A program made the position numbers and the translations under genes. DNA of 47,939 bases, taken from a virus. Lineage: Duplodnaviria > Heunggongvirae > Uroviricota > Caudoviricetes. Below the pieces are notes generated by a model. The model searched no databases. It was not told the DNA's origin and saw only the letters and a program-made list of their open reading frames with translations. This document shows positions 1-47,242 of the stretch, one piece after another; within the stretch, counting starts at the first letter, position 1; the number at the start of each line of letters is the position of its first letter. Location of the stretch: IMG/VR virus record IMGVR_UViG_2802429228_000006; one strand, given 5' to 3'.

Positions 1-1092
<1,092 letters not shown>

Positions 1093-2210: not shown

Positions 2211-2264
2211 GGGATATCGGGATAAAAAAAGACCGGCAGATGCCGGTCAGGTGGGTCATGAGGG

Positions 2265-4598: not shown

Positions 4599-4612
4599 GG
4601 TGTTGTTCTCCT

Positions 4613-4933: not shown

Positions 4934-5068
4934 TTGCTTTCCTCCCTGTGACAGATGACAGCATTCCGTGCCGGTTGCATTAACTGATAAGGCATATCTG
5001 CGTCTCCTGAAGACGTGCGTATCCCTGCGCGAATACGCACATTTAATTTTTCGGGGGTCGTTTTTTAA

Positions 5069-5524
5069 TTACAGATAATTGCGGTAACTGTTATCCGGGG
5101 TGGTTTCCGGGTCAGGCTCCGTGCGGGGGATTTCCCGCCATTCCCGCGCCACCGGTGCCGCCCGGCTGACCGGAACAGGGGCCTGCGGGTAAATATCCAG
5201 ATATTTCTCCCGCCATTTCTGTAATTCCGGGTCTCCGGCCATTTCTTTCAGTACCGCATGCCGGTTTACGGGGCTGCGTTTAAACAGGTCAGGACGGTCA
5301 CAGGTAAATTCCCGCAGAAAACGCCCCAGCGGGATGTCTGTGGTGCGCCCGTCTGCGAGGATACGCACAAGGATACTGAATTTACGGCGGTACGGGTTCC
5401 AGACAATGTCCGGGCAGCGGTACGGCATTTCCCACGGAATACCGTCTTCCAGAATGCCGACCACGGCCACATCGGGAAAACCGGCAGAACGGTAAATCTC
5501 ACCGGGCTGGGGAAAATCAAACAT
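5069..5524 (-). CDS. P4 orf151-like protein (151 aa)
   Basis: Exactly 151 codons in the position P4 orf151 occupies upstream of alpha; GGGGAG RBS. Confidence 0.55.
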   Translation of the reverse strand: MFDFPQPGEIYRSAGFPDVAVVGILEDGIPWEMPYRCPDIVWNPYRRKFSILVRILADGRTTDIPLGRFLREFTCDRPDLFKRSPVNRHAVLKEMAGDPELQKWREKYLDIYPQAPVPVSRAAPVAREWREIPRTEPDPETTPDNSYRNYL

Positions 5525-5804
5525 GCGTCTTGTCTCCCCGGTCTTTCTGCTGGGCGAGAAAATCGCGGCACAGGCCTTTGGCTTTCAGCTCATTCAGCAC
5601 AAAATCAATATCTTCATTCAGGTAGCTGAAAATATGCGGAATGTAGAGCTGATGCAGGCCGGAGAGTTCACGGTGAATCAAATCACCCCCAACAAACTGG
5701 GATACGGCGCTGGCGCGGTTGAGCTTATGGTAAGCCTCAATGCTGAGGTGTTCACGGGCGTCATGACGCGCTGAGACGGTCTGAGGGGCTTTTTTATTAC
5801 GCAC
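5517..5804 (-). CDS. Putative derepression (epsilon-like) protein, about 95 aa, GTG start
   Basis: The C-terminal part of ORF-track entry 5517..6050 has coding character. GGAGG followed by GTG defines a short gene; the long upstream extension is implausible. Confidence 0.4.
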
Positions 5805-5994
5805 GGGACACCTCCACCACCGGCAGACGGGCAGCAAGGGAGAGCACATAGTCACGGACAAGGGAACGGCGGGCGCTGCGTTCATCACCGGCGACGGTGC
5901 GAAGCATGCAGATACGGGGATGACGGTCTGCGCGACGGACAGCCGCAAACACAAAGACAAATTCAGGGTGTGAGGGGGTAAGGGTTGTAGCCAT
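5797..5994 (-). CDS. Small early ORF (65 aa), possible Icd/Kil-like host cell-division inhibitor
   Basis: Internal ATG of ORF 5797..6396 preceded by AAGGAGG; begins [16 protein letters not shown]. Sits immediately downstream of the seqC-like element. Confidence 0.4.
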
Positions 5995-6002
5995 GATGGC
6001 AG

Positions 6003-6255
6003 CCTCCTTGAAGTAACAGTTACAGCTACCACTGGAGTTCCTACGCTCATGGGTGGTAGCCCGGACGGGGGTAGGAATACCGGCCTTCAAGGAAACCGGC
6101 CAGCCCGAAGGCTGCCCCGCCCGGACCACCATTATCTGACAGAGGCTACGGTTTAAAAACCACAGCCAGAAAAACAGGTGTGCCGAAGCAACGACGTAAA
6201 AAAAGACGCATGGCGCGTCATATGTCGCCTTGAAGTAACTCGGGTTCCTACGCCC
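6003..6255 (-). promoter_or_regulatory. P4-type RNA immunity region: two similar sequences flanking a central complementary element (candidate CI-like RNA around 6070..6095)
   Basis: CCTTGAAGTAAC...GTTCCTACGC occurs at about 6005-6045 and 6228-6255. The central stretch ggtaggaataccggccttcaagg contains the reverse complements of both half-motifs (GTAGGAA, CTTCAAGG). Confidence 0.4.
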
Positions 6256-6347
6256 GGCTGCCGATTTTGCGACAGCGGAAAAACTATATCCGCAAATGCC
6301 GGAAAAAGGCAAGCCAGAAAAAGGGACTTTTTGCAGAACAGGCATCA

Positions 6348-6614
6348 TCATGCGTCGTACCCCCGTTTGCGTCCGGCAATGCGCCCGGCCATCCATGCGG
6401 TGACTTCAGAGTGCAGCCAGGCCACATTTTTACCGCCAAGACTCACCTGTGGCGGAAATTCCCCCTTACGGATGAGTTCATAGATGGTCGAGCGTGACAG
6501 GCCGCACAGGTGCATCACTTCCGGCAGACGTAAAAAACGCTCCTGCGTGATGTCCGGCAGCGGCATCAGTGGCGTCACAGGGGCGGGAGACGGGGAAGAA
6601 AAAACAGCTTGCAT
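6348..6614 (-). CDS. AlpA-family phage transcriptional regulator (short HTH protein)
   Basis: RLPEV...[17 protein letters not shown]...W...SEV..W matches the AlpA-type HTH signature. The true start may be an internal Met. Confidence 0.65.
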
Positions 6615-6892
6615 CGGGCTACCTCGTTAATGTCCATACAGCACCGGATAAGTCCGTCCGGCGTCGGGTAGCGCTTTATTTTGTGAATATTTTCAGCAGA
6701 CGCAACAGGGGGGATTTGTTCCGGTAGCCTTACAATGGCTGTGTGTTTTTTATCCATCTGGACTGGAAGGGTCTCAAAGGGTTCTGAAGGACCTGGAATT
6801 TTTTATAGTGAAATACAAATTGTTTTTTCTTATTTATTTCAGTGAATTAATAAAAATAAAAAGTAATAAACAGCACAAAAAGTCCATGAGCG

Positions 6893-6997
6893 GGTGAACA
6901 GTGGTGAACAGACGGTGAACAGTCATCGCTGCGATTGTTCACCCTTTAACTTACTGTATTGCTTATCTTTTTTCTTATGGTGAACAGAGGTGAACAG
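6893..6997. repeat. ori-like iteron cluster: five direct GGTGAACAG copies plus one inverted copy
   Basis: gggtgaacagtggtgaacagacggtgaacag...attgttcaccc...ggtgaacagaggtgaacag. Same octamer as the crr cluster and about 4.9 kb from it, as for P4 ori versus crr. Confidence 0.6.
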
Positions 6998-7076
6998 TAA
7001 AATATAAAAAAAACAAACAGTAAGCCGGTTTTTCCTGCGACCTTTTCCTGGCTTGCCGGTCTGAGGATGAGTCTCC

Positions 7077-7094
7077 TGTGTCAGGGCTGGCACA
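7077..7094 (+). promoter_or_regulatory. Delta/Ogr-type activator site (TGT-N12-ACA) of a P_sid-like late promoter
   Basis: tgtgtcagggctggcaca lies about 75-90 bp upstream of the sid ATG. Confidence 0.5.
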
Positions 7095-7166
7095 TCTGCA
7101 ATGCGTCGTGTTGTTGTCCGGTGTACGTCACAATTTTCTTAACCTGAAGTGACGAGGAGCCGGAAA

Positions 7167-7901
7167 ATGTCTGACAACACCATCCCTGAATATCTGCAAC
7201 CCGCGCTGGCACAACTGGAAAAGGCCAGAGCCGCCCATCTTGAGAACGCCCGCCTGATGGATGAGACCGTCACGGCCATTGAACGGGCAGAGCAGGAAAA
7301 AAATGCGCTGGCGCAGGCCGACGGAAACGACGCTGACGACTGGCGCACGGCCTTTCGTGCAGCCGGTGGTGTCCTGAGCGACGAGCTGAAACAGCGCCAC
7401 ATTGAGCGCGTGGCACGCCGGGAGCTGGTACAGGAATATGACAATCTGGCCGTGGTGCTGAATTTTGAACGTGAACGCCTGAAAGGGGCGTGTGACAGCA
7501 CGGCCACCGCCTACCGGAAGGCACATCATCACCTTCTGAGTCTGTATGCAGAGAATGAGCTGGAACACGCCCTGAATGAAACCTGTGAGGCGCTTGTCCG
7601 GGCAATGCATCTGAGCATCCTGGTACAGGAAAATCCGCTCGCCAACACCACCGGCCATCAGGGCTACGTCGCACCCGATAAAGCTGTCATGCAGCAGGTG
7701 AAATCATCGCTGGAACAGAAAATAAAACAGATGCAAATCAGCCTCACCGGCGAGCCGGTTCTCCGGCTGACCGGACTGTCAGCGGCAACACTCCCGCACA
7801 TGGATTATGAGGTGGCAGGCACACCGGCACAGCGCAAGGTGTGGCAGGACAAAATAGACCAGCAGGGAGCAGAGCTTAAGGCCAGAGGACTGCTGTCATG
7901 A
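7167..7901 (+). CDS. sid: Sid, P4 capsid size-determination (external scaffold) protein
   Basis: 244-aa product from MSDNTIPEYL with a GAGGAG RBS. First gene of a sid-delta-psu operon with P4 sizes. Confidence 0.8.
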   Translation: MSDNTIPEYLQPALAQLEKARAAHLENARLMDETVTAIERAEQEKNALAQADGNDADDWRTAFRAAGGVLSDELKQRHIERVARRELVQEYDNLAVVLNFERERLKGACDSTATAYRKAHHHLLSLYAENELEHALNETCEALVRAMHLSILVQENPLANTTGHQGYVAPDKAVMQQVKSSLEQKIKQMQISLTGEPVLRLTGLSAATLPHMDYEVAGTPAQRKVWQDKIDQQGAELKARGLLS

Positions 7902-8398
7902 TTTACTGCCCGTCGTGTGGACATGTTGCTCACACCCGTCGCGCACATTTCATGGACGATGGCACCAAGATAATGATTGCACAGTGCCGGAATATTTATT
8001 GCTCTGCGACATTTGAAGCGAGTGAAAGCTTTTTCTCTGACTGTAAAGATTCAGGAATGGAATACATTTCAGGCAAACAGAGATACCGCGATTCACTGAC
8101 GTCAGCCTCCGGCAGCATGAAACGCCCGAAAAGAATGCTTGTTACCGGATATTGTTGTCGGAGATGTAAAGGCCTTGCACTGTCAAGAACATCGCGGCGT
8201 CTGTCTCAGGAAGTCACCGAGCGTTTTTATGTGTGCACGGATCCGGGCTGTGGTCTGGTGTTTAAAACGCTTCAGACCATCAACCGCTTCATTGTCCGCC
8301 CGGTCACGCCGGACGAACTGGCAGAAAGCCTGCATGAAAAACAGGAACTGCCGCCAGTACGCTTAAAAACACAATCATATTCGCTGCGTCTGGAATGA
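7898..8398 (+). CDS. delta: Delta, late-gene transcriptional activator (tandem Ogr-like zinc fingers)
   Basis: 166 aa with two CxxC...C..C Ogr-type modules (MIYCPSCGHVAHTRRAH... and ...CCRRCKGLALSRTS...CTDPGCGLVF); start overlaps the sid stop. Confidence 0.85.
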   Translation: MIYCPSCGHVAHTRRAHFMDDGTKIMIAQCRNIYCSATFEASESFFSDCKDSGMEYISGKQRYRDSLTSASGSMKRPKRMLVTGYCCRRCKGLALSRTSRRLSQEVTERFYVCTDPGCGLVFKTLQTINRFIVRPVTPDELAESLHEKQELPPVRLKTQSYSLRLE

Positions 8399-8471
8399 GG
8401 GCTGCCGGTTAATACCGGCCGTCGCCGCACACCGTATTTTTATTCTTCAGCATGATGAGAAAGAGATAACG

Positions 8472-9044
8472 ATGGAAAGCACAGCCTTACAGCAGGCCTT
8501 TGACACCTGTCAGAATAACAAAGCAGCATGGCTGCAACGCAAAAATGAGCTGGCTGCGGCCGAACAGGAATATCTGCGGCTTCTGTCCGGGGAAGGCAGA
8601 AACGTCAGTCGCCTGGACGAATTACGCAATATTATCGAAGTCAGAAAATGGCAGGTGAATCAGGCCGCCGGTCGTTATATTCGTTCGCATGAAGCCGTTC
8701 AGCACATCAGCATCCGCGACCGGCTGAATGATTTTATGCAGCAGCACGGCACAGCACTGGCGGCGGCACTGGCACCGGAGCTGATGGGCTACAGTGAGCT
8801 GACGGCCATTGCCCGAAACTGTGCCATACAGCGTGCCACAGATGCCCTGCGTGAAGCCCTTCTGTCCTGGCTTGCGAAGGGGGAAAAAATTAATTATTCC
8901 GCACAGGATAGCGACATTTTAACGGCCATCGGATTCAGGCCTGACGCGGCTTCGGTGGATGACAGCCGTGAAAAATTCACTCCTGCGCAGAACATGATTT
9001 TTTCGCGTAAAAGTGCGCAACTGGCATCACATCAGTCTGTGTAA
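8472..9044 (+). CDS. psu: Psu, polarity suppression protein (Rho antagonist / capsid decoration)
   Basis: 190 aa; the MESTALQQAFDTCQNNKAAWLQRKNELAAAEQEYLRL N-terminus is recognisable as P4 Psu. Confidence 0.9.
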   Translation: MESTALQQAFDTCQNNKAAWLQRKNELAAAEQEYLRLLSGEGRNVSRLDELRNIIEVRKWQVNQAAGRYIRSHEAVQHISIRDRLNDFMQQHGTALAAALAPELMGYSELTAIARNCAIQRATDALREALLSWLAKGEKINYSAQDSDILTAIGFRPDAASVDDSREKFTPAQNMIFSRKSAQLASHQSV

Positions 9045-9080
9045 AACTCCCCGAAAATCCGCCCGTTTTTACTGAAAAAA

Positions 9081-9119
9081 GCCATGCATCGATAAGGTGC
9101 ATGGCTTTGCATGCGTTTT
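9081..9119 (+). terminator. Hairpin plus T-rich tract downstream of psu
   Basis: gccatgcatcgataaggtgcatggc followed by tttgcatgcgtttt. Confidence 0.45.
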
Positions 9120-9208
9120 CCTGCCTCATTTTCTGCAAACCACGCCATTCCCGGCGCGGTCTGAGCGTGTCAGTGCAACTGCATTAAAACCGCCCCGCAA
9201 AGCGGGCG

Positions 9209-9227
9209 GGCGAGGCGGGGAAAGCAC
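9209..9227. other. cos site, P2/P4 type (19-nt cohesive-end sequence)
   Basis: ggcgaggcggggaaagcac matches the P2/P4 cohesive end as I recall it, in the P4 position just past psu. Confidence 0.7.
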
Positions 9228-9315
9228 TGCGCGCGCATTGAATTAATTTATTAATAATTAAACTAGAATATGGAGTGGAGAAGTAAGAAACTTATAACAC
9301 TAAGGATAAGAGGAT

Positions 9316-11403
9316 ATGGGCAAAATGCAAAAAACTGAGGTCGAAGTATTTTCTGAGTTGGAGTCACTGTGTACATCTCATGGTTTTATTCATTGTTTAG
9401 CATTATTAAGCTGCATAAATAATATTACTATCTATGAAGACAAACTTAATTTTAAAGATGTGCAACATCTATACGAAAAAGAACGATTGATAAGAACCGA
9501 GATTTCTACGGTTGCAGGATTGTTGTTAAAGTCTGAAATTAATGTAAATTATCCCGGCGAAGAAGCACTGTTGAAATTATACGAAGATGTGAATGCATCT
9601 TTGAATATTTTACATAGTGCTATGCTTTTGACTGAGAAGAATGGCGATTACAACAATGCGATTATAAAAGAGAGTATATTTTATGCTGCTGAATCTGCTT
9701 ATGACTTTCAATATTTAGATATGGCGGAGGAAAAATACTCCTTAGATAATTCTTGGTTTTTAGAGAATATGGGGTTTACATGCATCGATATGGTGTCAGT
9801 AGGCCGGTGTATAGAGTCTATAATAGGGAGGCAAATTAATGATTTTTTAAATGGTGGTCAAGGGATTTTTAATGAGTGGCTATTAAATGCTTACGAGTTG
9901 TCAATTAATGAAATAGTTACTGAGACAGGTATTTCTTATGTGAAGGTAAGAACTATCATTGATTTGTTTTCGTCAGGTGGAAATTCAAATGAAACCTTTC
10001 AGTCTGTGAGTGACTTTAATATCTTTAATGCTAGACCCATAATCCGCACTGGAGATAGGTATTATTGTTTTTCAGCCTATTCATTGGCTCAGTCAATATA
10101 TGAAACACCATTTTTTTGGATGAATAATGACAAAAAATATAGACCTATATCTGCACAACATAGAGGACAATTTGTAGAAGATTATGTATATAGAAAAATG
10201 ACATCGATTTTTGGAATTGAGAATGTATTCAAAAATGTATATATAGTGAACTCTAATAATGAGACGCTAGGTGAAATAGATGTACTGGTATCTTTTTCTG
10301 ATTCGGTAATAATTTATCAGGCAAAATCTAAGAAGTTAACTATTGAAGCTAGAAAGGGAAATGGGAATGCTATACAAAAAGATTTTCAAGGTGCTATACA
10401 AGATGCTTATGATCAGGGGGTTTCTTGTGCTCAATTCATCGTATCTGGCGCAAGCCTAACTGATCAAAATTTCAACCGATTGAATCTCAACTCTTCAGTC
10501 TCTAGATGTTATATTGTTCCAATTATATCTGAGCATTATCCGTCTTTGAGTTTTCAGGTTCGTCAGTATTTGAATGTTAAAATAACAAATGAAATTTACC
10601 CGCCATTTATAATGGATGTTTTCCTTTTAGATGTTCTAACAGAGTTTTTAAATACGCCGCTATATTTTTTATCTTACATTGATCGTCGTTCGAAATATAA
10701 CATGAGAGTATTTTCTTCTCATGAATTGACAGTCTTTTCTTTGCATCTAAAACAGAATCTATGGATTGACAATGAATGTGATATGTTTATGTTGCATGAT
10801 GATATATGTGCTGATCTCGATATTGCGATGTTAGTCCGCAGGAAGGGGATCTCTGGTAAACATACTCCAAGTGGTATTCTAACACTCCATCAGGATGGCT
10901 TTATTAGAAAAATAATTAACTCATTGGAATCGGAAAATCATAAATTGGCGATGGATTTAGGTTTGCTTTTGCTTTCTTTGGATAGTGATGCTATTGAAAA
11001 CATCAATAAAATAGCTAATAAAACGATATTTTTATCTTCACTTGATAAGAAACACCATGATTTTTCAACTGTCATTGGGGATACGGGTATTACAGTTCAT
11101 TGTAATTACTATAAGAAAGATGTCGCGGGAAAAAAGTTGTATGAACATTGCATAAAAAGAAAATATATAACTAAATGTAAAAAATGGATTGGTATACATG
11201 TTAGACCAATAACATATGATATAAATTATGGAATTATGTTGGATTTTGAATGGGAATATTCTTCTGATATTGAAAGTATTATCACTCCTACTCCATTACA
11301 AAATACTTTGGTTAATGTTAAGGGAAATATGACTCAAGCAAAACGACCGGGTAGAAATGAACCATGTTTTTGTGGTAGCGGTAAAAAATGTTGTTTACGT
11401 TAA
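9316..11403 (+). CDS. Cargo protein (695 aa): putative PD-(D/E)xK/NERD-like nuclease with C-terminal SEC-C-type Cys motif; candidate anti-phage factor
   Basis: AT-rich ORF between cos and int. GEIDVLVSFSDSVIIYQAKSK fits a D..E.K nuclease core; the C-terminus CFCGSGKKCC fits a SEC-C metal-binding motif; no P-loop seen. Confidence 0.75.
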   Translation: MGKMQKTEVEVFSELESLCTSHGFIHCLALLSCINNITIYEDKLNFKDVQHLYEKERLIRTEISTVAGLLLKSEINVNYPGEEALLKLYEDVNASLNILHSAMLLTEKNGDYNNAIIKESIFYAAESAYDFQYLDMAEEKYSLDNSWFLENMGFTCIDMVSVGRCIESIIGRQINDFLNGGQGIFNEWLLNAYELSINEIVTETGISYVKVRTIIDLFSSGGNSNETFQSVSDFNIFNARPIIRTGDRYYCFSAYSLAQSIYETPFFWMNNDKKYRPISAQHRGQFVEDYVYRKMTSIFGIENVFKNVYIVNSNNETLGEIDVLVSFSDSVIIYQAKSKKLTIEARKGNGNAIQKDFQGAIQDAYDQGVSCAQFIVSGASLTDQNFNRLNLNSSVSRCYIVPIISEHYPSLSFQVRQYLNVKITNEIYPPFIMDVFLLDVLTEFLNTPLYFLSYIDRRSKYNMRVFSSHELTVFSLHLKQNLWIDNECDMFMLHDDICADLDIAMLVRRKGISGKHTPSGILTLHQDGFIRKIINSLESENHKLAMDLGLLLLSLDSDAIENINKIANKTIFLSSLDKKHHDFSTVIGDTGITVHCNYYKKDVAGKKLYEHCIKRKYITKCKKWIGIHVRPITYDINYGIMLDFEWEYSSDIESIITPTPLQNTLVNVKGNMTQAKRPGRNEPCFCGSGKKCCLR

Positions 11404-11410
11404 GGACAAT

Positions 11411-11429
11411 GGCGCGTTAAAAACGCGCC
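11411..11429. terminator. Bidirectional terminator between the cargo gene and int
   Basis: Perfect palindrome ggcgcgttaaaaacgcgcc flanked by T-runs. Confidence 0.5.
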
Positions 11430-11430
11430 T

Positions 11431-12624
11431 TTAGTTATTTTTTTTTACTTTGTTTCCCCACCATTCCATGAGTTCAATTCGTTGCTCTAAGTATGTAGAT
11501 CTATTGTATGCTCTCCGAACTTCATTTTTATCACTGTGAGCTAAAGCCGCTTCAATAACATCTGCATTGAAACCAGCTTCATTCATTGCAGTGCTTGCAA
11601 TAGAGCGAAGGCCATGAGCAACTAGTTTTCCGCCAAAACCAATGCGTTTTAAAGCTGCATTAGCAGTTTGGCTATTCATTGGCTGTTTAGGGTCATTTCT
11701 ACTTGGAAAAATATGTTCACGATGGGCACTAATAGGCTTCATTACTTCCAAAATATCTAAAGCCTGACGTGATAAAGGAACAATGTGTTCACGTTTGGCT
11801 TTCATCCGTTCAGGGGGAATAGTCCAGAGTTTTGTATCAAGATCGATCTCTGCCCAACAAGCACCAGAGGCTTCAGAAGGGCGTACAAGCGTCAAGAGTT
11901 GCCATTCAATGAGACAGCGAGTCGGAACAGATAGGTTTGACATAGCTAAAGAACGCATCAGCTTCGGCAATTCTTCTGGCCGCAATGTTGGCATGTTTTG
12001 CTTTTTTGGCTTCTCAAAGGCCATCCCAACCCCAGATGCTGGATTGGCATCAATCAGACCAGTGTTTACAGCGTAAATCATTATCTCGTTAATTCGCTGT
12101 ATCAGTCGACGTACAGTTTCAAGAGCCCCACGAGCTTTGATTGGCTCAAGAGCTTCGACTAGCGTCCGGGCTTTGATTTGCTGGACGGGAATCTCTCCAA
12201 TGGCTGGGAATATGTCTTTTTCCAGCGAACGCCATATATCTTTAGCGTAATCAGGGGAAACGCTTTTGCTTTTTATCTGAAACCAGTTGGTCGCAACAGT
12301 CGAAAAAATACTGTCTAGAGCTATCTGTTGTTGTTCTTCGATAAATTCAGCTTGAACTTGTGGGTCTATACCATTAGCCAACAAAGCAAGGTAATCCGCT
12401 CTTAACCGTCGAGCATCAGCAAGTGAAAGAGCGGGGAAAGCACCTATCCCCATCATTGTTCTTTTTTTTGTAGCTGGTCGTTGATAGCGAAATCGCCAAA
12501 GTTTCTTACCGCTTGTTTTCACTATCAGAAAGAGGCCTTCGCCATCATGCAACGTCAGATCCTTTTCTAATGCTTTAGCGCGCAGAACTTCTGTATTGGT
12601 TAGGGGGCGTGTTGTTCTTGCCAC
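11431..12624 (-). CDS. int: P4-type tyrosine integrase (IntA-like)
   Basis: 397-aa product with a P4/CP4-57 integrase-like sequence and a C-terminal catalytic region (HGLR..., ...AHSD...RAY). Adjacent to the att repeat. Confidence 0.9.
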   Translation of the reverse strand: MARTTRPLTNTEVLRAKALEKDLTLHDGEGLFLIVKTSGKKLWRFRYQRPATKKRTMMGIGAFPALSLADARRLRADYLALLANGIDPQVQAEFIEEQQQIALDSIFSTVATNWFQIKSKSVSPDYAKDIWRSLEKDIFPAIGEIPVQQIKARTLVEALEPIKARGALETVRRLIQRINEIMIYAVNTGLIDANPASGVGMAFEKPKKQNMPTLRPEELPKLMRSLAMSNLSVPTRCLIEWQLLTLVRPSEASGACWAEIDLDTKLWTIPPERMKAKREHIVPLSRQALDILEVMKPISAHREHIFPSRNDPKQPMNSQTANAALKRIGFGGKLVAHGLRSIASTAMNEAGFNADVIEAALAHSDKNEVRRAYNRSTYLEQRIELMEWWGNKVKKNN

Positions 12625-12645
12625 TTTGGCCGCTCCTTCATGAAT

Positions 12646-12697
12646 TGGTATACGCGTTTAGGCATATATCCTATCGTATACCTAAACGTATACCAAT
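12646..12697. promoter_or_regulatory. GTATACC box cluster between int and att (candidate integrase arm sites)
   Basis: ttggtatacg...cgtatacctaaacgtataccaat includes a 10-bp inverted repeat (ttggtatacg / cgtataccaa). The same box pair recurs at 1826..1848 at the other end of the element. Confidence 0.35.
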
Positions 12698-12737
12698 AAT
12701 CACTGGATTTAGCTGGATATCCTCGGACAACAGTAGA

Positions 12738-12773
12738 CACAAAAAAGCCCGCAGAGCTTGTGTCATGCGGGCT
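12738..12773 (-). terminator. Rho-independent terminator (minus strand) downstream of the ssrA-end copy
   Basis: Stem agcccgca/tgcgggct with a T6 run on the minus strand. Confidence 0.45.
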
Positions 12774-12808
12774 TTCAGGATTTCTCCGGACGTATCCGGA
12801 AGAGCAAG

Positions 12809-12853
12809 TGGTGGAGCTGGCGGGAGTTGAACCCGCGTCCGAAATTCCTACAT
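12809..12853 (-). repeat. 45-bp direct repeat of the ssrA 3' end (att core copy)
   Basis: tggtggagctggcgggagttgaacccgcgtccgaaattcctacat is identical to 46879..46923, the 3' end of intact ssrA, then diverges. Confidence 0.85.
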
Positions 12854-12969
12854 ACCATTATAACATGTTGCAAAACAACTATTTATGTTAATTTTCAATC
12901 ACTTAAGTTTACGATGTATTACCTTGTTTTATGTGTTTTTAACTCTTTGCCGCCATTATGCCGCCACTC

Positions 12970-14193
12970 TTATTTTAAATATTCATACTTCATCATTTGA
13001 TGAATAAGGAGTTCAACTTTTCTAAAAGTGGTATTTTCATAATGTTCAACAAGGGATTCATCAAAGTCTTCAATCCATCCTTTTGCGGGATTATAGGTCG
13101 AAAAATTAAAATTATTTTTGTATAGATAGGGGGTGGCTTCTAGTGTACTAAACACAGTCCAGGAAACAGGGTTTGTAACTCTAAATATTTTTTTTAAAAC
13201 AGGACAGTGGGTATCATTGGTTTCAACTATGTTTTCTATTTTTGGGGGGATAATTACATTAATCCCAATATCGCTATCTTTTTGGTTTAATATCTTTGTT
13301 GATCGATACGATATCCCTGATATATTTTTGTTTCTGTCACTACTAATCCATTGCATTAATAGGTTTGGTATTATGTATTCTTTATTAAAACTTGCGTTTT
13401 CATTATCTTTTGTATAGTTACATGCAAGGACTAAAGGCCATGCAATCAACTTTGAAATTTTATCATTAATTTGATCCATGAAATTATCATTATTTAGATC
13501 GTAATCATCATCTGAACCTTGTTCGAATGAATACCAAAGATCTCCCGGTTTTGTACGAAGTGCAGATGTTAAATTGTACCCAAGATCTAAAATTCTTATA
13601 TTTGAATTTTCTTTATCGGATATGAAGGAAGATATGTAAAGTTTATCAAAGTCAGGTTTTCCCATTTCTTGCCAACATACAAATATTGATGTTCCAAGAT
13701 ATAAACATGGAAGACCGGATACAGAAAATCTTTGTGCGCTAACTAAATGTCTATTTTTAAATGGTATATGAAATAATTCTTCTCTTTGTTTTAGGATGCA
13801 CTCACTTTTCCTTACGCGAAATAAAGGGGTGTGTGGGTTGCATAATTTAGTTAGAGGAACAGTCATCTTATAAAGATGAGTATGCATTGATGACTTGGTA
13901 ATTGCCAAATCGAATTTTTTATAAGCTTCTTTAACATTTCCTATTAAAAATAGCTTAAGAGTTTCTATTATTTTATCAGATAAATATATTATTGATTTTG
14001 TGCGAATCTTTACTTGTTTAATTATCTCGTTGTCAGGATATTTATTTCTAATGGAGTCAATTAATTCTAAATAGCACTCGACTCTCTTAGAAAAGTCAGA
14101 AATTAGTTTTCCCTCGGCAATGAATGGGGGTTGCAATAGTTCATGTTTTTTTAGTTCTTCCGATATCTGTTCTAATTCGATAATGTTGCGCAT
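12970..14193 (-). CDS. RES-domain protein (407 aa), candidate NAD-targeting toxin / abortive-infection effector
   Basis: AT-rich ORF between att and int. LFRVR...QRFSVSGLPCLYLGTSIFVCWQE matches the RES signature (R...GRWN..G.P.LY......E). No adjacent partner gene. Confidence 0.6.
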   Translation of the reverse strand: MRNIIELEQISEELKKHELLQPPFIAEGKLISDFSKRVECYLELIDSIRNKYPDNEIIKQVKIRTKSIIYLSDKIIETLKLFLIGNVKEAYKKFDLAITKSSMHTHLYKMTVPLTKLCNPHTPLFRVRKSECILKQREELFHIPFKNRHLVSAQRFSVSGLPCLYLGTSIFVCWQEMGKPDFDKLYISSFISDKENSNIRILDLGYNLTSALRTKPGDLWYSFEQGSDDDYDLNNDNFMDQINDKISKLIAWPLVLACNYTKDNENASFNKEYIIPNLLMQWISSDRNKNISGISYRSTKILNQKDSDIGINVIIPPKIENIVETNDTHCPVLKKIFRVTNPVSWTVFSTLEATPYLYKNNFNFSTYNPAKGWIEDFDESLVEHYENTTFRKVELLIHQMMKYEYLK

Positions 14194-14197
14194 GTGC

Positions 14198-15217
14198 TTA
14201 ATCCATCAAGGTTGCTAATGGGTTTTTAGTTACTGCATCTTCAAGATGATCTGGGGAAAAATGAGCGTAAATCATCGTCATTTTTATATCGGCATGTCCA
14301 AGAATATCGCGCAGTACCAGTATATTTCCACCGTTCATCATAAAATGACTGGCAAATGTATGGCGCAGAACATGGGTACATTGGCCTTCTGGTAGTTCTA
14401 AACCGGCTCGCTTTACTGCACGCTCAAAGGCTTTTCTGCATGGGGTGAATAACTTCCCCCTATTCTTAGGCAGTTCTTCATATAAATCCTTAGAAATAGG
14501 CACAGTTCGGTTTTTCTTGCCTTTGGTCTTGGTATAAGTGATACGGTATTTTGATACCTGATGACTCTGCAGGTTTTCGGCTTCGCTCCAGCGTGCGCCG
14601 GTGGCCAGGCATATTTTTGCAATCAAAAGCAGGCTGGAGCTTTGAGAATCGGCGCAGGCATCCAGCAGACGTTTAATTTCTTCCGGGGTCAGGAACGCCA
14701 ATTCACTCTCAGCAATTTTAAATGTTGGCAGCCCAGCAAGCGGGTTGGGGGCTGACCAGTGGCCCAGCTTTTTCAGTGTACCAAAAACAGATGATAGATT
14801 GCGCTGTTCAAGGTTTACCGTGCGGGGCTTAACGGGCGACATAAACGTGCCATCTTCATTTCGTACTTCACCTTTTAACCGTGCTTCGCGGTATTTCGTA
14901 AAGTCACCGGCTGTCAGTTCTGAAGCGATGGGATCGCCTAGACCATTACAGATAATTCTAAGTTTCGCTATGAGGCGCTTGGGGTCTGCGAGTGTTTGAC
15001 CATACAGGGAATACCACTGCTCAATTAATTCTGATAGGTGTCGCCGATCTTCCTTTTCCCCCAGCCATGGTTTTTTGTTCACTTCTTCCATTGTGAAGCT
15101 TTCAAAAGCAATGGCTTCGCCTTTCGTAGCAAATTGCTTACGCACGCGCTTGCCATTGCGTCCATTGGGATAGCACTCGCACAACCATTTACCGTTTGGC
15201 TGTTTTCTGACAGTCAT
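14198..15217 (-). CDS. int: P2/186-family tyrosine integrase
   Basis: 339 aa with a C-terminal catalytic region (ARWSEA..., HVLRHTFAS, ...MTMIYAH); position next to the repressor. Confidence 0.9.
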   Translation of the reverse strand: MTVRKQPNGKWLCECYPNGRNGKRVRKQFATKGEAIAFESFTMEEVNKKPWLGEKEDRRHLSELIEQWYSLYGQTLADPKRLIAKLRIICNGLGDPIASELTAGDFTKYREARLKGEVRNEDGTFMSPVKPRTVNLEQRNLSSVFGTLKKLGHWSAPNPLAGLPTFKIAESELAFLTPEEIKRLLDACADSQSSSLLLIAKICLATGARWSEAENLQSHQVSKYRITYTKTKGKKNRTVPISKDLYEELPKNRGKLFTPCRKAFERAVKRAGLELPEGQCTHVLRHTFASHFMMNGGNILVLRDILGHADIKMTMIYAHFSPDHLEDAVTKNPLATLMD

Positions 15218-15219
15218 GT

Positions 15220-15852
15220 TTAGATACTCTTTATTACTTTGACTGCACGCCCAATAACTTCCACATCATCGGCAGAGCACTCGAAAGACGCTTCATCTTG
15301 ATTTACTACAATCTTATTGCCGGGAATCCGCATGATTTTTGCAATAATAATCATTCCATCAATATTGATAAGCCAGAATCCATTGCTGACTTGTTTAACT
15401 GATTTATCGATGAGATAACAATCAGTAGGGGTTTCTAAGAACATCGATTCTTCATAATCTGCAGGTAATATGCTGTGGTCTAGGAAAATCTCTTCATCAA
15501 TACTGAGTTGTCCATTTTCCAAGGTTCCTTTAGGAATAGATGGAGTTATGAGTTTGGATAACGGTTTAATTGCTTGTTTGTTCTCGTTATGAGATCTTTT
15601 CTCAGACTCGTATCCTTCTTTCATGCTTCCCTGTCCAGTGGCTAACCAAAGTAACGAAACACCGGTTTCTAGTGCACACTGAATTATCCAGTCAGCAGGA
15701 AAACTGTCACGTAACACTCTGTTTGCCATAGTACTTTTTGAGACATTCAGGTGCTCGCTTAATGCCTGCTTAGTTGTGAATCCATAAGCCTCAAGCAGCC
15801 TCTCAATAGCTGCCTTACCTCCCGTATCGGAACCCATTCTGATGTTTAACAT
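15220..15852 (-). CDS. cI: 186-type CI immunity repressor
   Basis: 210 aa with an N-terminal HTH; divergent from an Apl-like gene across an operator-bearing intergenic region; GGAG RBS. Confidence 0.7.
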   Translation of the reverse strand: MLNIRMGSDTGGKAAIERLLEAYGFTTKQALSEHLNVSKSTMANRVLRDSFPADWIIQCALETGVSLLWLATGQGSMKEGYESEKRSHNENKQAIKPLSKLITPSIPKGTLENGQLSIDEEIFLDHSILPADYEESMFLETPTDCYLIDKSVKQVSNGFWLINIDGMIIIAKIMRIPGNKIVVNQDEASFECSADDVEVIGRAVKVIKSI

Positions 15853-22221: not shown

Positions 22222-23631
22222 ATGTCTTTTCTTGATATAAAAAAAATGAGTAAAGAGAGGTTTAATGCTTTTGTTGATTGGACCAGAATGCCAAATACTG
22301 AACTTTTAGGCTATGAGTTTGAGTGGTACTGTAGTCCGAGAGAGTTCCTGCTAGGGGCACTATTATTGGATCAAATCGATGAAGATTATAGCGGTATTGT
22401 TTTAGCAAGAGACTTAAGTGGGAGATATAGATGTATTGACCTATTTACTAGTGTTTCAGAAATGAATTCTGCACGAGCAAAACTAAAGAAATTAATGCGG
22501 AAGCATACTAAATTAAACGTAAAAGTATTTCCACAAGGTGATGAAACTTATAAAGCAATGGATTTATTCACACCTATAGTTACACCAGATAAACTTCATC
22601 ATCATTTTTCATTATTTGGTAAATATGCGAACTGGTCGCCTGCAACAGGGATAATCAAGGAAATGATGAATCATTTTGAGGATGTCGACGGGAATTTTAT
22701 AGAGCAGTTTCAGACAACAGGTTTTGATGCCCGGCTATGGGAGTTATATCTTTTCGCATATTTACGAGAGGAACACTTTTGGCTAGATAGGCAGTTTAAT
22801 GCCCCTGATTATGTGGCACGTAAGTATGGTAATACTATTTGCATTGAAGCTGTAACGGTTAATCCAACAGGGAATGATATTAATCAATCATCTGAAATGC
22901 TATCTGAACCTAAAAGTAAGGAAGAATTGCTAGAGAAAATAGAGAATTATATGCCGATTAAATTTGGAAGTTCTCTCTATTCTAAACTGAAAAAGAAAAC
23001 TCGATACTGGGATCTAGAACATGTTAAGGGGAATCCTTTAATTTTCGCAATTGCTGATTTTCATGAACCAAACTCTATGATTTGGTCCCATAGTGCACTT
23101 TGGCAGTATCTTTATGGTATTCGCTATGAGCATGTTAAATCTGAAGATGGATGTTACAGTTTAGCAACTAAGAAAATTATATCGCATCAATTTGAGAAAA
23201 AGGAAATCCCTTCAGGCTTTTTCTTCTTGGATGAGTCTGAAAATATTTCGGCCGTCCTTAGTTCTAATAGTGGTACTATATCGAAGTTTAATCGGATGGG
23301 AAAACTGGCTGGTTTTGGAAGAAGTGACCTTAGATTATTTAGGAGTGGTTACTGCCATGATCATGACCCAGAGGCATTATATCCAGCAGCATTTAGTTTT
23401 GAAGTGAAAGAAGGCGATATTACAGAAACATGGGCAGAAGGTTTAAATATGTATCATAATCCTAATGCTAAATATCCTGTAGATCCTGATTTATTTCCTT
23501 CAATAGCACATCATTTTCTTGAAAATGGAGAGGTTAAAAGTATAGTGCCTGACTTTCATCCGTATACATCTATTACCATAAATGTCTTAACTCAAAATAA
23601 TAAAAAACAAAAAATCAGAGTAGATGAGTAA
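22222..23631 (+). CDS. Cargo protein (469 aa) of unrecognised family; candidate anti-phage factor
   Basis: AT-rich ORF in the variable region between gene A and portal gene Q; no P-loop, RT or obvious nuclease motif. Confidence 0.7.
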   Translation: MSFLDIKKMSKERFNAFVDWTRMPNTELLGYEFEWYCSPREFLLGALLLDQIDEDYSGIVLARDLSGRYRCIDLFTSVSEMNSARAKLKKLMRKHTKLNVKVFPQGDETYKAMDLFTPIVTPDKLHHHFSLFGKYANWSPATGIIKEMMNHFEDVDGNFIEQFQTTGFDARLWELYLFAYLREEHFWLDRQFNAPDYVARKYGNTICIEAVTVNPTGNDINQSSEMLSEPKSKEELLEKIENYMPIKFGSSLYSKLKKKTRYWDLEHVKGNPLIFAIADFHEPNSMIWSHSALWQYLYGIRYEHVKSEDGCYSLATKKIISHQFEKKEIPSGFFFLDESENISAVLSSNSGTISKFNRMGKLAGFGRSDLRLFRSGYCHDHDPEALYPAAFSFEVKEGDITETWAEGLNMYHNPNAKYPVDPDLFPSIAHHFLENGEVKSIVPDFHPYTSITINVLTQNNKKQKIRVDE

Positions 23632-32496: not shown

Positions 32497-34197
32497 TTAT
32501 TCAAGGTGATTTGAAAGAGTAATTAATGGCTCAATCGGTTGGAACGCTTTTAAGGATGTTAATATGTTTTTAACTTCCTTTGATACGATAGATAACGGGT
32601 TGTCTGTTACAGATAAGTAGGTGGTTAAATCTTGACCTGAAACACGGATAACATGTGGTAATATCGCAGTTATAACTGGTGTCCAAAGGTCGATTAAATC
32701 ATCCAGAGAGTTATTTTTAGATAATGCTGTATCATATTTATATTTTATTTTCTTCTTGTTCAAAGGTTTATCTGTTAATTCTTCAAGTATTTCTCCGATG
32801 ACGGATATTAAAAAGAATCGAGACTTTAAATTTTGGAGGAATAATAAGTTATCCTCATCTACTTTAATTTTATTCTCTTTTGCACGGATTTGAGATTTTA
32901 CTTTTTCTATAGCTTTTGAAATAGTGTAAGCACATAAAATATGCTGGGCTTTCGAATCATGAAAGGCATTGTCATAGGCTGATTTTGTATCGAAAACGTA
33001 GTTTTTACCTCTATTGGCGCTAACATAATCCCCATGTAACGCTATCAGCGGTTGAGCAACAGACTCAATGCCAAATAAAGAACCAGTATTTTCGAAGCCG
33101 CGTTTCAGTGAATATGTATAACCAAGAGTGGAAAATTCTTCTGCCACCTGTTTTTGTTCTGTGCTGTTAGAGTAGTGATCCCAGGTTGTAATATGATTCT
33201 GAGTATTATTATACTGGACTATTTTTTTTACTTTGTCCGCATCATTACATTCAATAACCTTACAAAGGACTTTTAGGCCATCTAATTTTTGTATATCTTG
33301 AACTGAACCAATAGAACCAGTGGTTTGAGCTCCATTTATGATTGAAACTCCTTCCAACAACCCTTTTTCTTTGTTGAATTTTGTTGTTAGGATTGATACA
33401 CCATTGTTAAAGACAAAGAAGTCTTTTGGGGATGTTTCTGCGGTATTCTTAATTGATGAGTTTATTTTTCTTCTCTTATTTAATCCCATGAACCCCCTAT
33501 AATTAGCAGAAAATAATTCTGCTCCATAATTTTTGTATAAATAATTTAGCCAAGTGCCGTTTGCAAAGCCAACATGTGAAGTCCAGCCATCACCTTGTAC
33601 AGAATTTATAAGTTCGCCATTGAACTTTATATTGTCAGTCACAACAATTTGTTGTGATAGCGCAATATACAATTTTTCAAGACTATTAACACCAAGTTCT
33701 CTGTAAGTTACCTCAATTTCTTTGTCTGCAAATCTACCTGCTAGATAGTCACGACAAGTTTCAAGCTCAGTTTTAACCTGCTCAGATTCGGCACAATTAT
33801 GGATATATAATAATTCAACAGCTTCAATTTCGTTATCATCAATTAATTTTCTAACCTCAGAAATTTTTGCTCTTAATTTTGCATTTGGAGACTCTCCTGA
33901 GCCTGCCATAATCCACGCTAAAGCAGTGTTTAAGTCAGAAGCTTTATTTGCAGGCGCAACTATTTTAAGTGCTTGCTGATTGCAGTAGTAACCCTGAGCA
34001 ATAAATAACGTTGAATTAATTACGGTAATGAAGTCTATTTTCTTATCGTTTCCACCATCAGTAAGTCCATCAGATGCTAGCTTATCAAAATCGGATTCAT
34101 CTAAGTAAAGACCTAATGACCATAAAAGATGTGCGTTACTAGTCCCGTACTTTTCTAACAGGGAAGTTTTATTTTGCAGTTGTCTTAAGTGTTCCAT
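32497..34197 (-). CDS. AIPR-type (abortive infection phage resistance) protein, 566 aa
   Basis: AT-rich ORF antisense to the tail genes; the conserved block ...GVSIINGAQTTGS... resembles the AIPR family. Confidence 0.65.
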   Translation of the reverse strand: MEHLRQLQNKTSLLEKYGTSNAHLLWSLGLYLDESDFDKLASDGLTDGGNDKKIDFITVINSTLFIAQGYYCNQQALKIVAPANKASDLNTALAWIMAGSGESPNAKLRAKISEVRKLIDDNEIEAVELLYIHNCAESEQVKTELETCRDYLAGRFADKEIEVTYRELGVNSLEKLYIALSQQIVVTDNIKFNGELINSVQGDGWTSHVGFANGTWLNYLYKNYGAELFSANYRGFMGLNKRRKINSSIKNTAETSPKDFFVFNNGVSILTTKFNKEKGLLEGVSIINGAQTTGSIGSVQDIQKLDGLKVLCKVIECNDADKVKKIVQYNNTQNHITTWDHYSNSTEQKQVAEEFSTLGYTYSLKRGFENTGSLFGIESVAQPLIALHGDYVSANRGKNYVFDTKSAYDNAFHDSKAQHILCAYTISKAIEKVKSQIRAKENKIKVDEDNLLFLQNLKSRFFLISVIGEILEELTDKPLNKKKIKYKYDTALSKNNSLDDLIDLWTPVITAILPHVIRVSGQDLTTYLSVTDNPLSIVSKEVKNILTSLKAFQPIEPLITLSNHLE

Positions 34198-46027: not shown

Positions 46028-46246
46028 ATGATGAATTGTCCAAAGTGTGGTCATGCGGCACACACAAGGAGCAGTTTTCAAGTAACTGAAAGCACCAAAG
46101 AGCGTTACTGCCAGTGCCAAAATATTAACTGCGGGAGCACTTTTGTTACCCATGAAACAGTGGTCCGGTTTATTGTGACACCCGCACTGATTGCTACTGC
46201 TCCTCCACATCCATTGCCAGGTGGTCAGGGGCATATGAATTTTTGA
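46028..46246 (+). CDS. ogr: Ogr, late-gene zinc-finger transcriptional activator
   Basis: MMNCPKCGHAAHTRSS...CQCQNINCGSTF matches the Ogr C2C2 zinc finger; start chosen at the homolog N-terminus. Confidence 0.8.
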   Translation: MMNCPKCGHAAHTRSSFQVTESTKERYCQCQNINCGSTFVTHETVVRFIVTPALIATAPPHPLPGGQGHMNF

Positions 46247-46253
46247 GAAAGAG

Positions 46254-46275
46254 AACCTGCTACGGCAGGTTTTTA
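46254..46275. terminator. Bidirectional terminator between ogr and the convergent cargo gene
   Basis: aacctgctacggcaggtt followed by ttta. Confidence 0.5.
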
Positions 46276-46755
46276 TTCATCTGGGATCTCACCCGTTTCA
46301 AGAAAATGTATAAAGCCAGGCTCATCTATGATGATTGTGCCTTTCATCCTGGCTGCCGATACTTTTGATGGGCCTGCATTGTAACCGCAACAGAGCATCT
46401 GAAGGCTTTGGGTTACAGAGGTTCTTACCGTTAATCCTTGTTCATTCGCCTTATCAACCAATCTTTCTTTATCTGCTTTCTTAAATCCGGTGAAACACAC
46501 ATCGAATGTATTTTTTTTCGGACCAGACTGCTTAGTGAGATGTGAGTAGTTTTCGGGGAGGAATGACGCGCATTCCTGAATGGCTTGTTCTGGTGAATCG
46601 TACTGTTTAAGAATGCGGTCTTTTCGGAAGGTTTTTATTCGATCGGTGTTCTTACAAATGCCCTGTATATGATTTTCGCTATAACTGATGCTCTGTATTG
46701 AGTGAACTCCGATACGACCATTTGCATTGATGTAAACAAAGTGAAGTTCTTCCAT
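46273..46755 (-). CDS. Small cargo protein (160 aa) with WYL-like N-terminal and BRCT-like C-terminal domain
   Basis: N-terminal ...IKTFRKDRI resembles the WYL signature (RTFRLDRI); the C-terminal hydrophobic/Gly pattern (VCFTGF...GPSK...IIIDEPGFIHFL) resembles a BRCT fold; AAGAGG RBS. Confidence 0.55.
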   Translation of the reverse strand: MEELHFVYINANGRIGVHSIQSISYSENHIQGICKNTDRIKTFRKDRILKQYDSPEQAIQECASFLPENYSHLTKQSGPKKNTFDVCFTGFKKADKERLVDKANEQGLTVRTSVTQSLQMLCCGYNAGPSKVSAARMKGTIIIDEPGFIHFLETGEIPDE

Positions 46756-46837
46756 GTGAAACCTCTTTGCATGATTTCAAGATGGCGACAGGCAAGATGG
46801 ACGCAAAAGTCTGTCGCCATTTTGCCGCCACTACCAA

Positions 46838-46870
46838 AGAAAAAGGGGCTACGCTTTTACGTAACCCCTT
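46838..46870 (-). terminator. Rho-independent terminator of ssrA (prophage-side sequence)
   Basis: Stem AAGGGG...CCCCTT with TTT on the minus strand immediately 3' of ssrA. Confidence 0.5.
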
Positions 46871-46878
46871 GATTTATT

Positions 46879-47242
46879 TGGTGGAGCTGGCGGGAGTTGA
46901 ACCCGCGTCCGAAATTCCTACATCCTCGGTACTACATGCTTAGTCAGTCTTTACATTCGCTTGCCAGCTGCGGACAGACACGCCACTAACAAACTAGCCT
47001 GATTAAGTTTTAACGCTTCAACCCCAGGCAAGGCTTCCACGCGATCTCTTTTGGGTTTGACCTCTCTTGATCCCCGTCCTAAGAGCGGAGGCTAGGGAGA
47101 GAGGGCTCTAAGCAGGTTATTAAGCTGCTAAAGCGTAGTTTTCGTCGTTTGCGACTATTTTTTGCGGCTTTTTACGAGGCCAACCGCCCCTCGGCATGCA
47201 CCTTGGGTTTCGCAAATCCCGTCGAATCCAGAATCAGCCCCA
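46879..47242 (-). ncRNA. ssrA: tmRNA (SsrA, 10Sa RNA)
   Basis: The reverse complement reads GGGGCTGATTCTGGATTCGACGGGATTTGCG...GCAAACGACGAAAACTACGCTTTAGCAGCT...GGTTCAACTCCCGCCAGCTCCACCA, including the ANDENYALAA tag-coding region. Ends may be off by 1 nt. Confidence 0.95.

Follow-up and report, generated by a model that had tools for sequence, protein, structure and literature searches.

A two-module WYL-BRCT protein encoded beside ssrA in a P2-like prophage, a candidate lysogenic-conversion recogniser of DNA ends and single-stranded DNA

Introduction

WYL domains are currently seen as sensors of single-stranded DNA (ssDNA) that drive helix-turn-helix (HTH) outputs for defence or repair operons. 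In CapW, BrxR, DriD and PafBC, the WYL domain is accompanied by a winged HTH (wHTH) and by WCX, a dimerisation and ligand-tunnel domain. The WYL domains of CapW and DriD hold ssDNA in the groove that PafBC also uses, and the affinity of WYL domains for ssDNA is only micromolar (PMC11662680).

BRCT domains can hold a phosphate in a pocket made of a Ser/Thr-Gly pair in the beta1-alpha1 loop and a lysine that starts alpha2 (PMC10386641). [quoted passage not shown] In LigA and RFC1, the BRCT domain hangs on an enzyme or an AAA+ machine. A fusion of WYL and BRCT was named without comment in 2014 (PMC4012209), and our literature searches found no functional work on any member of such a family.

The lysogenic-conversion or exclusion genes old, tin and fun of P2 and rexAB of lambda are non-essential, AT-richer and transcribed in the lysogen. 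In lambda, rexAB follows cI, and many relatives of the gene described here likewise directly follow a repressor gene. A 2026 survey lists the int-att and int-primase intervals of P2 as minor defence hotspots, and the ogr-att slot is not among them (PMC13586616).

Here, we describe a gene in the ogr-att slot whose product combines a WYL-type sensor with a ligase-type BRCT domain and nothing else. Like the P2 and lambda genes, it is non-essential, AT-richer and lysogen-transcribed, at a repressor-like level, although its product has no sequence or fold kinship with theirs. It belongs to a family that spans hundreds of sequence clusters, many of which have a membrane anchor, and that temperate phages express from their lysogeny side.

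Results

The window, meaning the whole stretch of DNA that was analysed (47,939 nucleotides of IMG/VR record IMGVR_UViG_2802429228_000006), contains a 34-kb P2-like prophage bracketed by a 45-nt perfect direct repeat of the 3' end of the host tmRNA gene. The first-pass annotation had proposed a 160-aa gene with its own ribosome-binding site between ogr and ssrA, leaving the strand unstated; the gene and its Shine-Dalgarno sequence are indeed there, on the minus strand, which also carries ssrA, int and cI; ogr is convergent with the gene. The immediate setting is as follows, with smpB lying beyond ssrA.

46273..46755, minus strand: WYL-BRCT protein gene, ATG to stop in the open reading frame list, 160 aa plus stop (RefSeq WP_000391794.1; PHROG 2561; 122 homologs)
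46762..46766, minus strand: Shine-Dalgarno sequence AGAGG, read from the sequence, with the ATG 6 nt further on
46028..46246, plus strand: ogr, late-gene activator and convergent neighbour (RefSeq annotation mapped from locus L001; open reading frame list)
46254..46271: GC-rich hairpin between the convergent stops of ogr and the WYL-BRCT gene, from a terminator scan; probably a bidirectional terminator
46879..47241, minus strand: host tmRNA gene ssrA (ARAGORN), 123 nt upstream of the WYL-BRCT gene and co-oriented with it

This is a genuine gene rather than a chance open reading frame, because it has 122 homologs of like length, conserved end to end down to about 32 % identity, as well as a RefSeq record, a presence in 171 of 5426 complete E. 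coli genomes and an ortholog that is transcribed in the lysogen. PHROG 2561 matches the protein over its full length (E=2e-77). The corresponding region of E. coli S88 is 100 % identical, and the gene product is recorded there under the same RefSeq accession as 'BRCT domain-containing protein'.

An AF2 model of the protein (pLDDT 91.4) divides it into a barrel, a linker region and a second folded domain.

46594..46755, minus strand: WYL-type, Sm-like five-strand beta-barrel, codons 1-54, with the hallmark K41-T42-F43-R44-K45-D46-R47-I48
46504..46593, minus strand: two short helices (55-62 and 67-73), then a low-confidence, poorly conserved linker, codons 55-84
46276..46503, minus strand: LigA/RFC1-class BRCT domain, codons 85-160

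The linker, where pLDDT falls to 66 at residues 71-80, is variable and rich in indels in an alignment of 52 close relatives (A1).

Taken alone, the window protein has no match to Pfam WYL (PF13280). The model is matched, however, by 8 of the 52 close relatives, by 22 of 39 relatives with N-terminal extensions and by 2 of 17 further members, with a best E-value of 1.2e-8. The first profile of the N-terminal domain (A2) reached PafBC in the PDB at E=2.4 only, and a broad N-domain profile (A5), searched against 177,635 PDB sequences, found PafBC at 2e-7, PafC at 9e-6 and PafB at 6e-3, together with the WYL domain of an AAA ATPase (8bnv) at 1e-4. The structure model agrees, showing a five-stranded Sm/SH3-like beta-barrel whose nearest solved structures are WYL domains; barrels of the Sm-like kind frequently oligomerise. 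HMM alignments place R201/R204 of PafC and R211/R214 of PafB on R44/R47, so that F200-R201-F-D-R204-I of PafC is aligned to F43-R44-K-D-R47-I. R44 is kept in 47/52 and R47 in 45/52 close relatives, and across alignment A5 R47 is invariant and R44 near-invariant. Arginine-to-alanine mutants of the matching PafBC arginines lose ssDNA binding (PMC11804915).

Other groove positions are less uniform. PafB R181, Y196 and R208 correspond to positions 18, 29 and 41, which are H/H/K in the E. coli protein, Y/Q/R/H, H/Y and K/R in the close relatives, and R/Y/R across the broader family. Judged by these residues (H18, H29, K41), the predicted ssDNA groove of the E. coli protein is only partly canonical. 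The eponymous W-Y-L site reads N28-H29-I30, with Q31 next, and x-Y/H-I/L in the family; set against the W-Y-L of the wHTH-WYL-WCX factors, the window protein has H-I-Q and the family Y-I-Q. The tyrosine position holds Tyr in 21/52 members and His in 29/52, and CapW itself reads W-H-V.

For the C-terminal half, the single sequence scores 19.5 bits against Pfam BRCT, just below the cut-off of 21.3, and finds RFC1 alone in a phmmer search of the PDB (E=0.07). At the level of the family the assignment is firmer: BRCT models match 45/52 members, and the family profile finds the BRCT domains of RFC1 (3e-5) and LigA (5e-5) in the PDB. The LigA family PHROG 3869 matches this half at 6e-9, and the predicted order of elements, beta-alpha-beta-beta-alpha-beta-alpha, is that of a BRCT domain. 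T89, G90 and K131 are invariant in 52/52 sequences and K96 is kept in 49/52; F91 is also invariant, K92, K93, K96 and N126-A127-G128-P129 are near-invariant, and the C-terminal tail T154-G155-E-I-P is conserved. The BRCT phosphate pocket is thus present, as T89-G90 plus K131. Together with K96, we take it to be the equivalent of T415/G416/R423/K458 in human RFC1. The domain resembles the BRCT domains of LigA and RFC1, its best profile matches, in its fold, in the T-G ... K/R ... K pocket and in the (N/E)AG(P/S)xK motif, here a LigA-like N-A-G-P-x-K (NAGPSK). It differs from them in being joined to a WYL domain only and in being acidic overall (pI 5.3, whereas the RFC1 domain is basic), and its DNA binding is putative.

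Family-level profile matches to both domains and the predicted folds of both therefore support the first-pass reading, which had recognised a WYL-type motif in IKTFRKDRI (residues 40-48) and a BRCT-like pattern in the C-terminal half. Domain searches and the structure model show no catalytic, HTH or membrane domain in the protein. Specifically, the barrel begins at residue 3, there is no Pfam or NCBIfam HTH match and the model has no helical N-terminal domain, which leaves no winged HTH; and in the model the barrel is followed by the two short helices, the linker and the BRCT fold rather than by WCX. As the protein has neither wHTH nor WCX, it cannot regulate transcription alone and is not a regulator of the CapW/BrxR type; its output side is a BRCT domain. 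It is a two-module protein without an enzyme or HTH domain, with ligand residues conserved in both modules, and it differs in this from all characterised WYL proteins (no HTH, no WCX) and from all characterised bacterial BRCT proteins (no enzyme).

Public records name the family otherwise. The first-pass annotation had been unable to place the WYL-BRCT architecture in a known family; the fusion itself stands, yet PHROG 2561 and RefSeq WP_000391794.1 already hold the family, being the family of this very protein. Its WYL half is unannotated in the records examined (PHROG 2561 and the RefSeq 'BRCT domain-containing protein'). The label NAD-dependent DNA ligase (PHROG 2561, phage 500465-1) goes back to matches covering only LigA positions 549-650 of 652 and 594-663 of 664; the ligase model scores 19.6 bits against a cut-off of 444, and the adenylation (KxDG), OB, zinc-finger and HhH domains are missing. 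The DEDDh exonuclease label of phage Cartapus fares no better, with a match to NF004719 at 229-307 of 331 only, which is the BRCT tail of that model, and 26 bits against 389. Because the matches are limited to the C-terminal BRCT domains of the LigA and DEDDh models, the 'DNA ligase' and 'putative exonuclease' labels are wrong, and that of PHROG 2561 is a domain-transfer error.

Among defence models, PADLOC gives only partial matches to the BRCT half (PDC-S48 and SspE), and in this search the protein is not a recognised defence protein. The window protein covers positions 335-406 of the 411 of PDC-S48 (E=1.8e-7), again with its BRCT half, and the SspE match is marginal (E=1.3e-3) and takes in part of that half. 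When PDC-S48 was compared with nine extended relatives, eight matched, over 297-406 at most and usually about 336-406, and one (P0154) did not. The likeness is that of a related C-terminal BRCT domain, with the rest of the PDC-S48 profile unmatched; because about 70 of 411 profile positions match, we treat the two as different families and rejected membership in PDC-S48.

The borders of the prophage and its lysogeny module are the following.

46879..46923: attR core, one copy of the 45-nt direct repeat (D2), with homology to Fels-2 attP
12809..12853: attL core at the left prophage border, the second copy of repeat D2
46843..46870, minus strand: ssrA terminator hairpin, phage-borne, 12-bp stem plus T run (terminator scan; RNA fold)
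46812..46830, minus strand: tandem TGGCGRCA repeats at 11-bp spacing in the att arm, between terminator and gene
14198..15852, minus strand: lysogeny operon, with the cI repressor at 15220-15852 and integrase at 14198-15217 (Pfam; gene order in free phages)
12970..14193, minus strand: RES-like ORF407, 407 aa, at the left prophage end

TGGCGRCA also occurs as an inverted copy at 46783-46790 and as a matching tandem pair in the other arm (12948-12966). With 17 matches in the window against 5 +/- 2 expected, and conservation in three phages, the repeats are probably arm-type integrase sites. The cargo character of the WYL-BRCT gene is supported by its GC content (41 % vs 50 %) and by the RES-like cargo and, beside it, AIPR cargo in the same prophage.

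Free phages of the same genus, Elveevirus (Cartapus and Yersinia phage MLG42), carry, in order on the minus strand, cI, int, an attP region of about 287 bp and the WYL-BRCT gene, with ogr convergent. On the circular phage, the lysogeny operon therefore runs across ORF407 and attP in the direction of the WYL-BRCT gene. Since the gene is the last on the lysogeny strand, beyond attP, integration parts it from cI-int and sets it 123 nt behind ssrA. The ssrA terminator, whose hairpin is kept in the attP of both free phages, stands upstream of the gene in the integrated and circular states alike. The Shine-Dalgarno sequence is kept in Cartapus and partly in MLG42. A scan of the minus strand from ssrA to the ATG gave no sigma-70 consensus promoter, nor does the attP alignment of the three phages show a conserved one. 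A leader hairpin that would sequester the Shine-Dalgarno sequence was weak and not conserved, and was set aside. ORF407 was likewise rejected as a partner gene: it has nothing in common with the WYL-BRCT protein or with the recurrent domain of its relatives, and among the free phages a RES gene stands between int and attP in Cartapus and is absent from MLG42.

Expression data exist for an ortholog. E. coli LF82 carries Cartapus as a prophage, and there LF82_783, equivalent to CARTA_32, is a 483-bp 'putative exonuclease' gene 122 bp from the prophage edge (PMC9928086). Its position, length and annotation identify it as the ortholog, and a 1-kb query spanning our gene is 97 % identical to Cartapus DNA. 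By strand-specific RNA-seq, CARTA_32 is one of two Cartapus morons, 15-fold over the prophage background, with log2(fpkm+5) values of 6.6-9.6 in five conditions, where CI reads 5.0-9.3, int 3.5-6.4 and gpD about 3 (PMC9928086, including supplementary values). CARTA_32 is at or above CI in 4/5 conditions, with gpD at background. We conclude that lysogens transcribe the ortholog of the WYL-BRCT gene at a time when their lytic genes are silent.

The position of the gene was then compared across 49 species-representative loci, 18 in P2-like prophages and 31 elsewhere. In all 18 P2-like loci, it lies on the repressor strand within the repressor/ogr-D junction, in one of three layouts. In six genera it has the E. 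coli layout, standing behind att and converging on ogr/D; in the other two layouts it either follows cI by 9-29 bp and is itself followed by int, or follows the repressor and converges on D. The 9-29 bp distance to cI is seen in loci L008, L009, L019, L021 and L035-37, a place between C and int in L002, L005 and L010, and a place beyond attP in E. coli, Cartapus and MLG42. Repressor-adjacent forms also occur in Xenorhabdus, Serratia, Yersinia ruckeri, Sodalis and Pectobacterium. Of the att-adjacent forms, those of five genera lie about 125 bp behind the tmRNA gene and co-oriented with it, and in Pantoea the gene lies behind tRNA-Met. The commonest neighbours in the 31 other loci are integrases (5), S24 repressors (4) and HTH proteins; in Pseudothioglobus, a copy has Mrr and a methylase as neighbours within an integrase island. 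Among the loci examined, no recurrent effector family or conserved partner gene accompanies the homologs. The gene is accessory in P2-like phages, being missing from P2 itself and from many of its relatives.

A deep profile search returned 889 cluster representatives at E<=1e-10, of which 203 reach E<=1e-30. Most relatives are stand-alone proteins of about 155-185 aa. N-terminal extensions, where present, have predicted transmembrane segments followed by low-complexity linkers in 34/41 cases. Longer relatives carry, on either side, a recurrent unannotated domain with the pattern GW.F.V...LDIK...WTQGH.F.F..GD, probably PHROG 36782, and some have extra BRCT copies.

Discussion

We propose that the WYL-BRCT protein is a lysogeny-expressed accessory ('moron') protein in which a flexible linker joins two nucleic-acid-recognition modules. 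The WYL barrel would bind ssDNA through the conserved R44/R47 groove, and the BRCT domain would use its T89-G90/K96/K131 pocket to bind a 5'-phosphate at a DNA terminus or a duplex end. Their joint target would then be ssDNA next to a phosphorylated duplex end, as in gaps, resected or recessed ends, flapped nicks, and replication or recombination intermediates. Lacking catalytic, HTH and membrane domains, the protein may act by occupying, capping, shielding or marking such DNA. We consider the binding of ssDNA and 5'-phosphate by the protein somewhat probable, by analogy with PafBC and RFC1.

In the lysogen, the protein may serve lysogenic conversion by interfering with DNA that enters the cell from superinfecting phages or as other elements. 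We favour this role because of the repressor-like transcription, the RES-like and AIPR cargo of the same prophage, the cargo slots in lysogeny modules, placed by the 2026 survey with the minor P2 defence hotspots (PMC13586616), and the many membrane-tethered relatives; even so, an anti-phage or exclusion role taken by itself is rather doubtful, and the account as a whole, a lysogenic-conversion recogniser of DNA ends and ssDNA, is our best explanation on a tentative footing. Co-transcription with cI tells when the protein is made and not what it does. Integration moves the gene from cI-int to host ssrA, whose read-through may drive expression. Read-through from the very active ssrA promoter is plausible because the stable-RNA geometry is conserved, although a strong terminator stands between ssrA and the gene, and we put it at somewhat below an even chance. 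A bolder version seems unlikely to us: a minimal immunity module of temperate phages without an effector, which would cap the ssDNA/5'-phosphate junctions that arise as incoming DNA enters, replicates or recombines, with membrane-tethered forms intercepting it at entry and, in the lineage that integrates at ssrA or tRNA genes, integration rewiring expression from the cI-int transcript of the circular genome to read-through from a host stable-RNA promoter.

If gapped or 5'-phosphorylated DNA is indeed bound and lysogens are protected, the family would represent a new, very small class of prophage interference and a fourth P2-type lysogenic-conversion function. Lysogens of E. coli LF82 and S88 offer a direct test bed for it.

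The same anatomy could instead describe a DNA-damage sensor that tunes lysogeny, in which WYL senses ssDNA and BRCT signals to CI, RecA filaments, RecFOR, SSB or another host factor to stabilise or destabilise the prophage. Every characterised WYL domain of this type reads ssDNA as a damage signal (DriD, PafBC, CapW), BRCT is a classic protein-interaction module, the conserved TGEIP tail could serve docking, and the gene is coupled to the repressor across 186-type CI, P2 C-type HTH_3 and LexA-like S24 repressors. Such a sensing route would be undescribed for P2-like phages. However, the protein has no HTH or WCX, its gene is accessory rather than core in P2-like phages, and in the E. coli lineage int, cargo and attP separate it from cI. 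In addition, S24 repressors already sense damage through RecA, and the many membrane-anchored relatives fit poorly with a cytoplasmic regulatory adaptor. We regard this reading as improbable.

Still less probable is a counter-defence decoy that soaks up the ssDNA or ends that trigger CapW, BrxR or end-dependent nucleases, and so shields the phage at establishment or induction. Host CapW responds to ssDNA by strengthening CBASS against prophage induction (PMC11662680), and a sensor module without an output is built like a sponge. In the circular phage genome, moreover, the gene lies downstream of attP on the cI-int strand and could be made at establishment if the phage-borne terminator were passed. 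Yet the micromolar affinity of WYL domains for ssDNA would make stoichiometric sequestration costly, and high constitutive expression in the lysogen better suits a moron that benefits the host. We know of no precedent for such a decoy.

We give a similarly slim chance to a helper role in the DNA metabolism of the phage itself, in which the protein would bring in host LigA (or RecBCD/RecFOR), or compete with it, at nicks, at cos ends or on rolling-circle intermediates of the P2-like genome. P2-like phages carry a 5'-phosphate on their cohesive ends and start replication from a nick, the nearest BRCT domains are those of LigA and RFC1, with the NAGPSK motif in common with LigA, and adjacency to attP and int is consistent with such a role. 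Against it, the gene is expressed in the quiescent lysogen with late genes silent, is dispensable for the life cycle, since P2 and many P2-like phages do without it, and has homologs in non-phage islands and as membrane proteins.

That the protein is an enzyme, a DNA ligase or exonuclease as public annotations and the weak matches to LigA and DEDDh-exonuclease models would have it, is refuted by its domain content, because the WYL barrel and the BRCT domain fill its 160 residues and leave an adenylation, OB or DEDDh domain no space. This mis-annotation can be corrected now in public phage records. In a viral structure library, the same architecture of about 160 aa recurs in other phages, again labelled ligase.

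Membrane-tethered and fused relatives of the WYL-BRCT protein

Many relatives of the WYL-BRCT protein are longer than the 160-aa form. Ahead of the WYL-BRCT module, about 34 of the 41 N-terminally extended relatives (P0141, P0142 and P0165-P0262) are predicted to cross the membrane one to five times and have a low-complexity linker; membrane-tethered forms are thus common. In eight relatives (P0121, P0124, P0127, P0129, P0154, P0176, P0178 and P0190), the module is fused, at either of its ends, to an unannotated domain that recurs among them, is about 200 aa long and has the pattern GW.F.V...LDIK...WTQGH.F.F..GD. This WTQGH-type domain had no Pfam or PADLOC matches, and it probably corresponds to PHROG 36782. 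Its loci in two of the compared genomes are:

L022 5443-6489, WTQGH-type domain
L024 5242-6456, WTQGH-type domain

Past the last BRCT helix, the protein ends in a conserved tail, L-E-T-G-E-I-P (residues 152-158, window ~46282-46302), in which T154 is kept in 49 of the 52 aligned family members and G155 in 50/52. The tail matched no known motif; a partner protein could dock there.

Repeats in the att arms

Each att arm carries one pair of TGGCGRCA tandem repeats with 11-bp spacing, and an additional copy lies near attR:

12948-12966 (-), TGGCGRCA tandem repeats
46812-46830 (-), TGGCGRCA tandem repeats
46783-46790 (+), extra inverted TGGCGRCA copy

The tandem repeats are kept in Cartapus, the E. 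coli LF82 prophage, and in Yersinia phage MLG42, and are probably integrase arm-type sites. With the extra copy, positions 46782-46791 and 46811-46820 form a perfect inverted repeat of 10 bp just upstream of the WYL-BRCT start.

Cargo at other positions of the prophage

Three further genes of low GC content were found in the prophage:

12970-14193 (-), 407-aa ORF between int and attL, GC 31 %
22222-23631 (+), 469-aa ORF in the gpA-portal interval, GC 35 %
32497-34197 (-), AIPR (abortive-infection phage resistance) family protein, 566 aa, GC 34 %

The AIPR gene is defence-type cargo inside the late region. Inserted against the direction of its neighbours, it separates the virion-morphogenesis gene from baseplate gene V, close to the P2 hotspot described as 'downstream of gpL / Z-fun'. 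The 469-aa ORF, which had no match in a Pfam scan, occupies the tin/old position, the principal P2 hotspot for defence genes; in Cartapus this interval is filled by other genes, two of them likewise lysogen-expressed. The int-att slot is a minor P2 defence hotspot in a 2026 survey (PMC13586616). Pfam and PADLOC scans of its 407-aa ORF returned nothing at E<=1e-3. The ORF contains a RES-like motif, RFSVSGLPCLYLG...E, and its Cartapus ortholog is labelled 'putative RES protein, NAD+ binding domain'; MLG42 is without it.

Near its right end, Cartapus also encodes a DinI-type RecA-filament binding protein (L062 32013-32246), which may matter if the WYL-BRCT protein proves to act on damage signalling. 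This gene and the adjoining hypothetical genes are strongly up-regulated inside macrophages in the LF82 table (PMC9928086).

An apparent neighbouring element at ssrA

Directly left of attL lies a second integrase, and farther left a direct repeat:

11431-12624 (-), P4-type integrase (Arm-DNA-bind_3 + Phage_int_M + Phage_integrase)
1910-2030 and 2090-2210, 121-nt direct repeat in two copies

Beyond this integrase, the stretch left of attL (1-12808) holds more large ORFs (e.g. 9316-11403) with no Pfam match, and ssrA therefore appears to be occupied by two mobile elements in tandem. The direct-repeat copies in the neighbouring element share 81 % identity and lie 180 nt apart.
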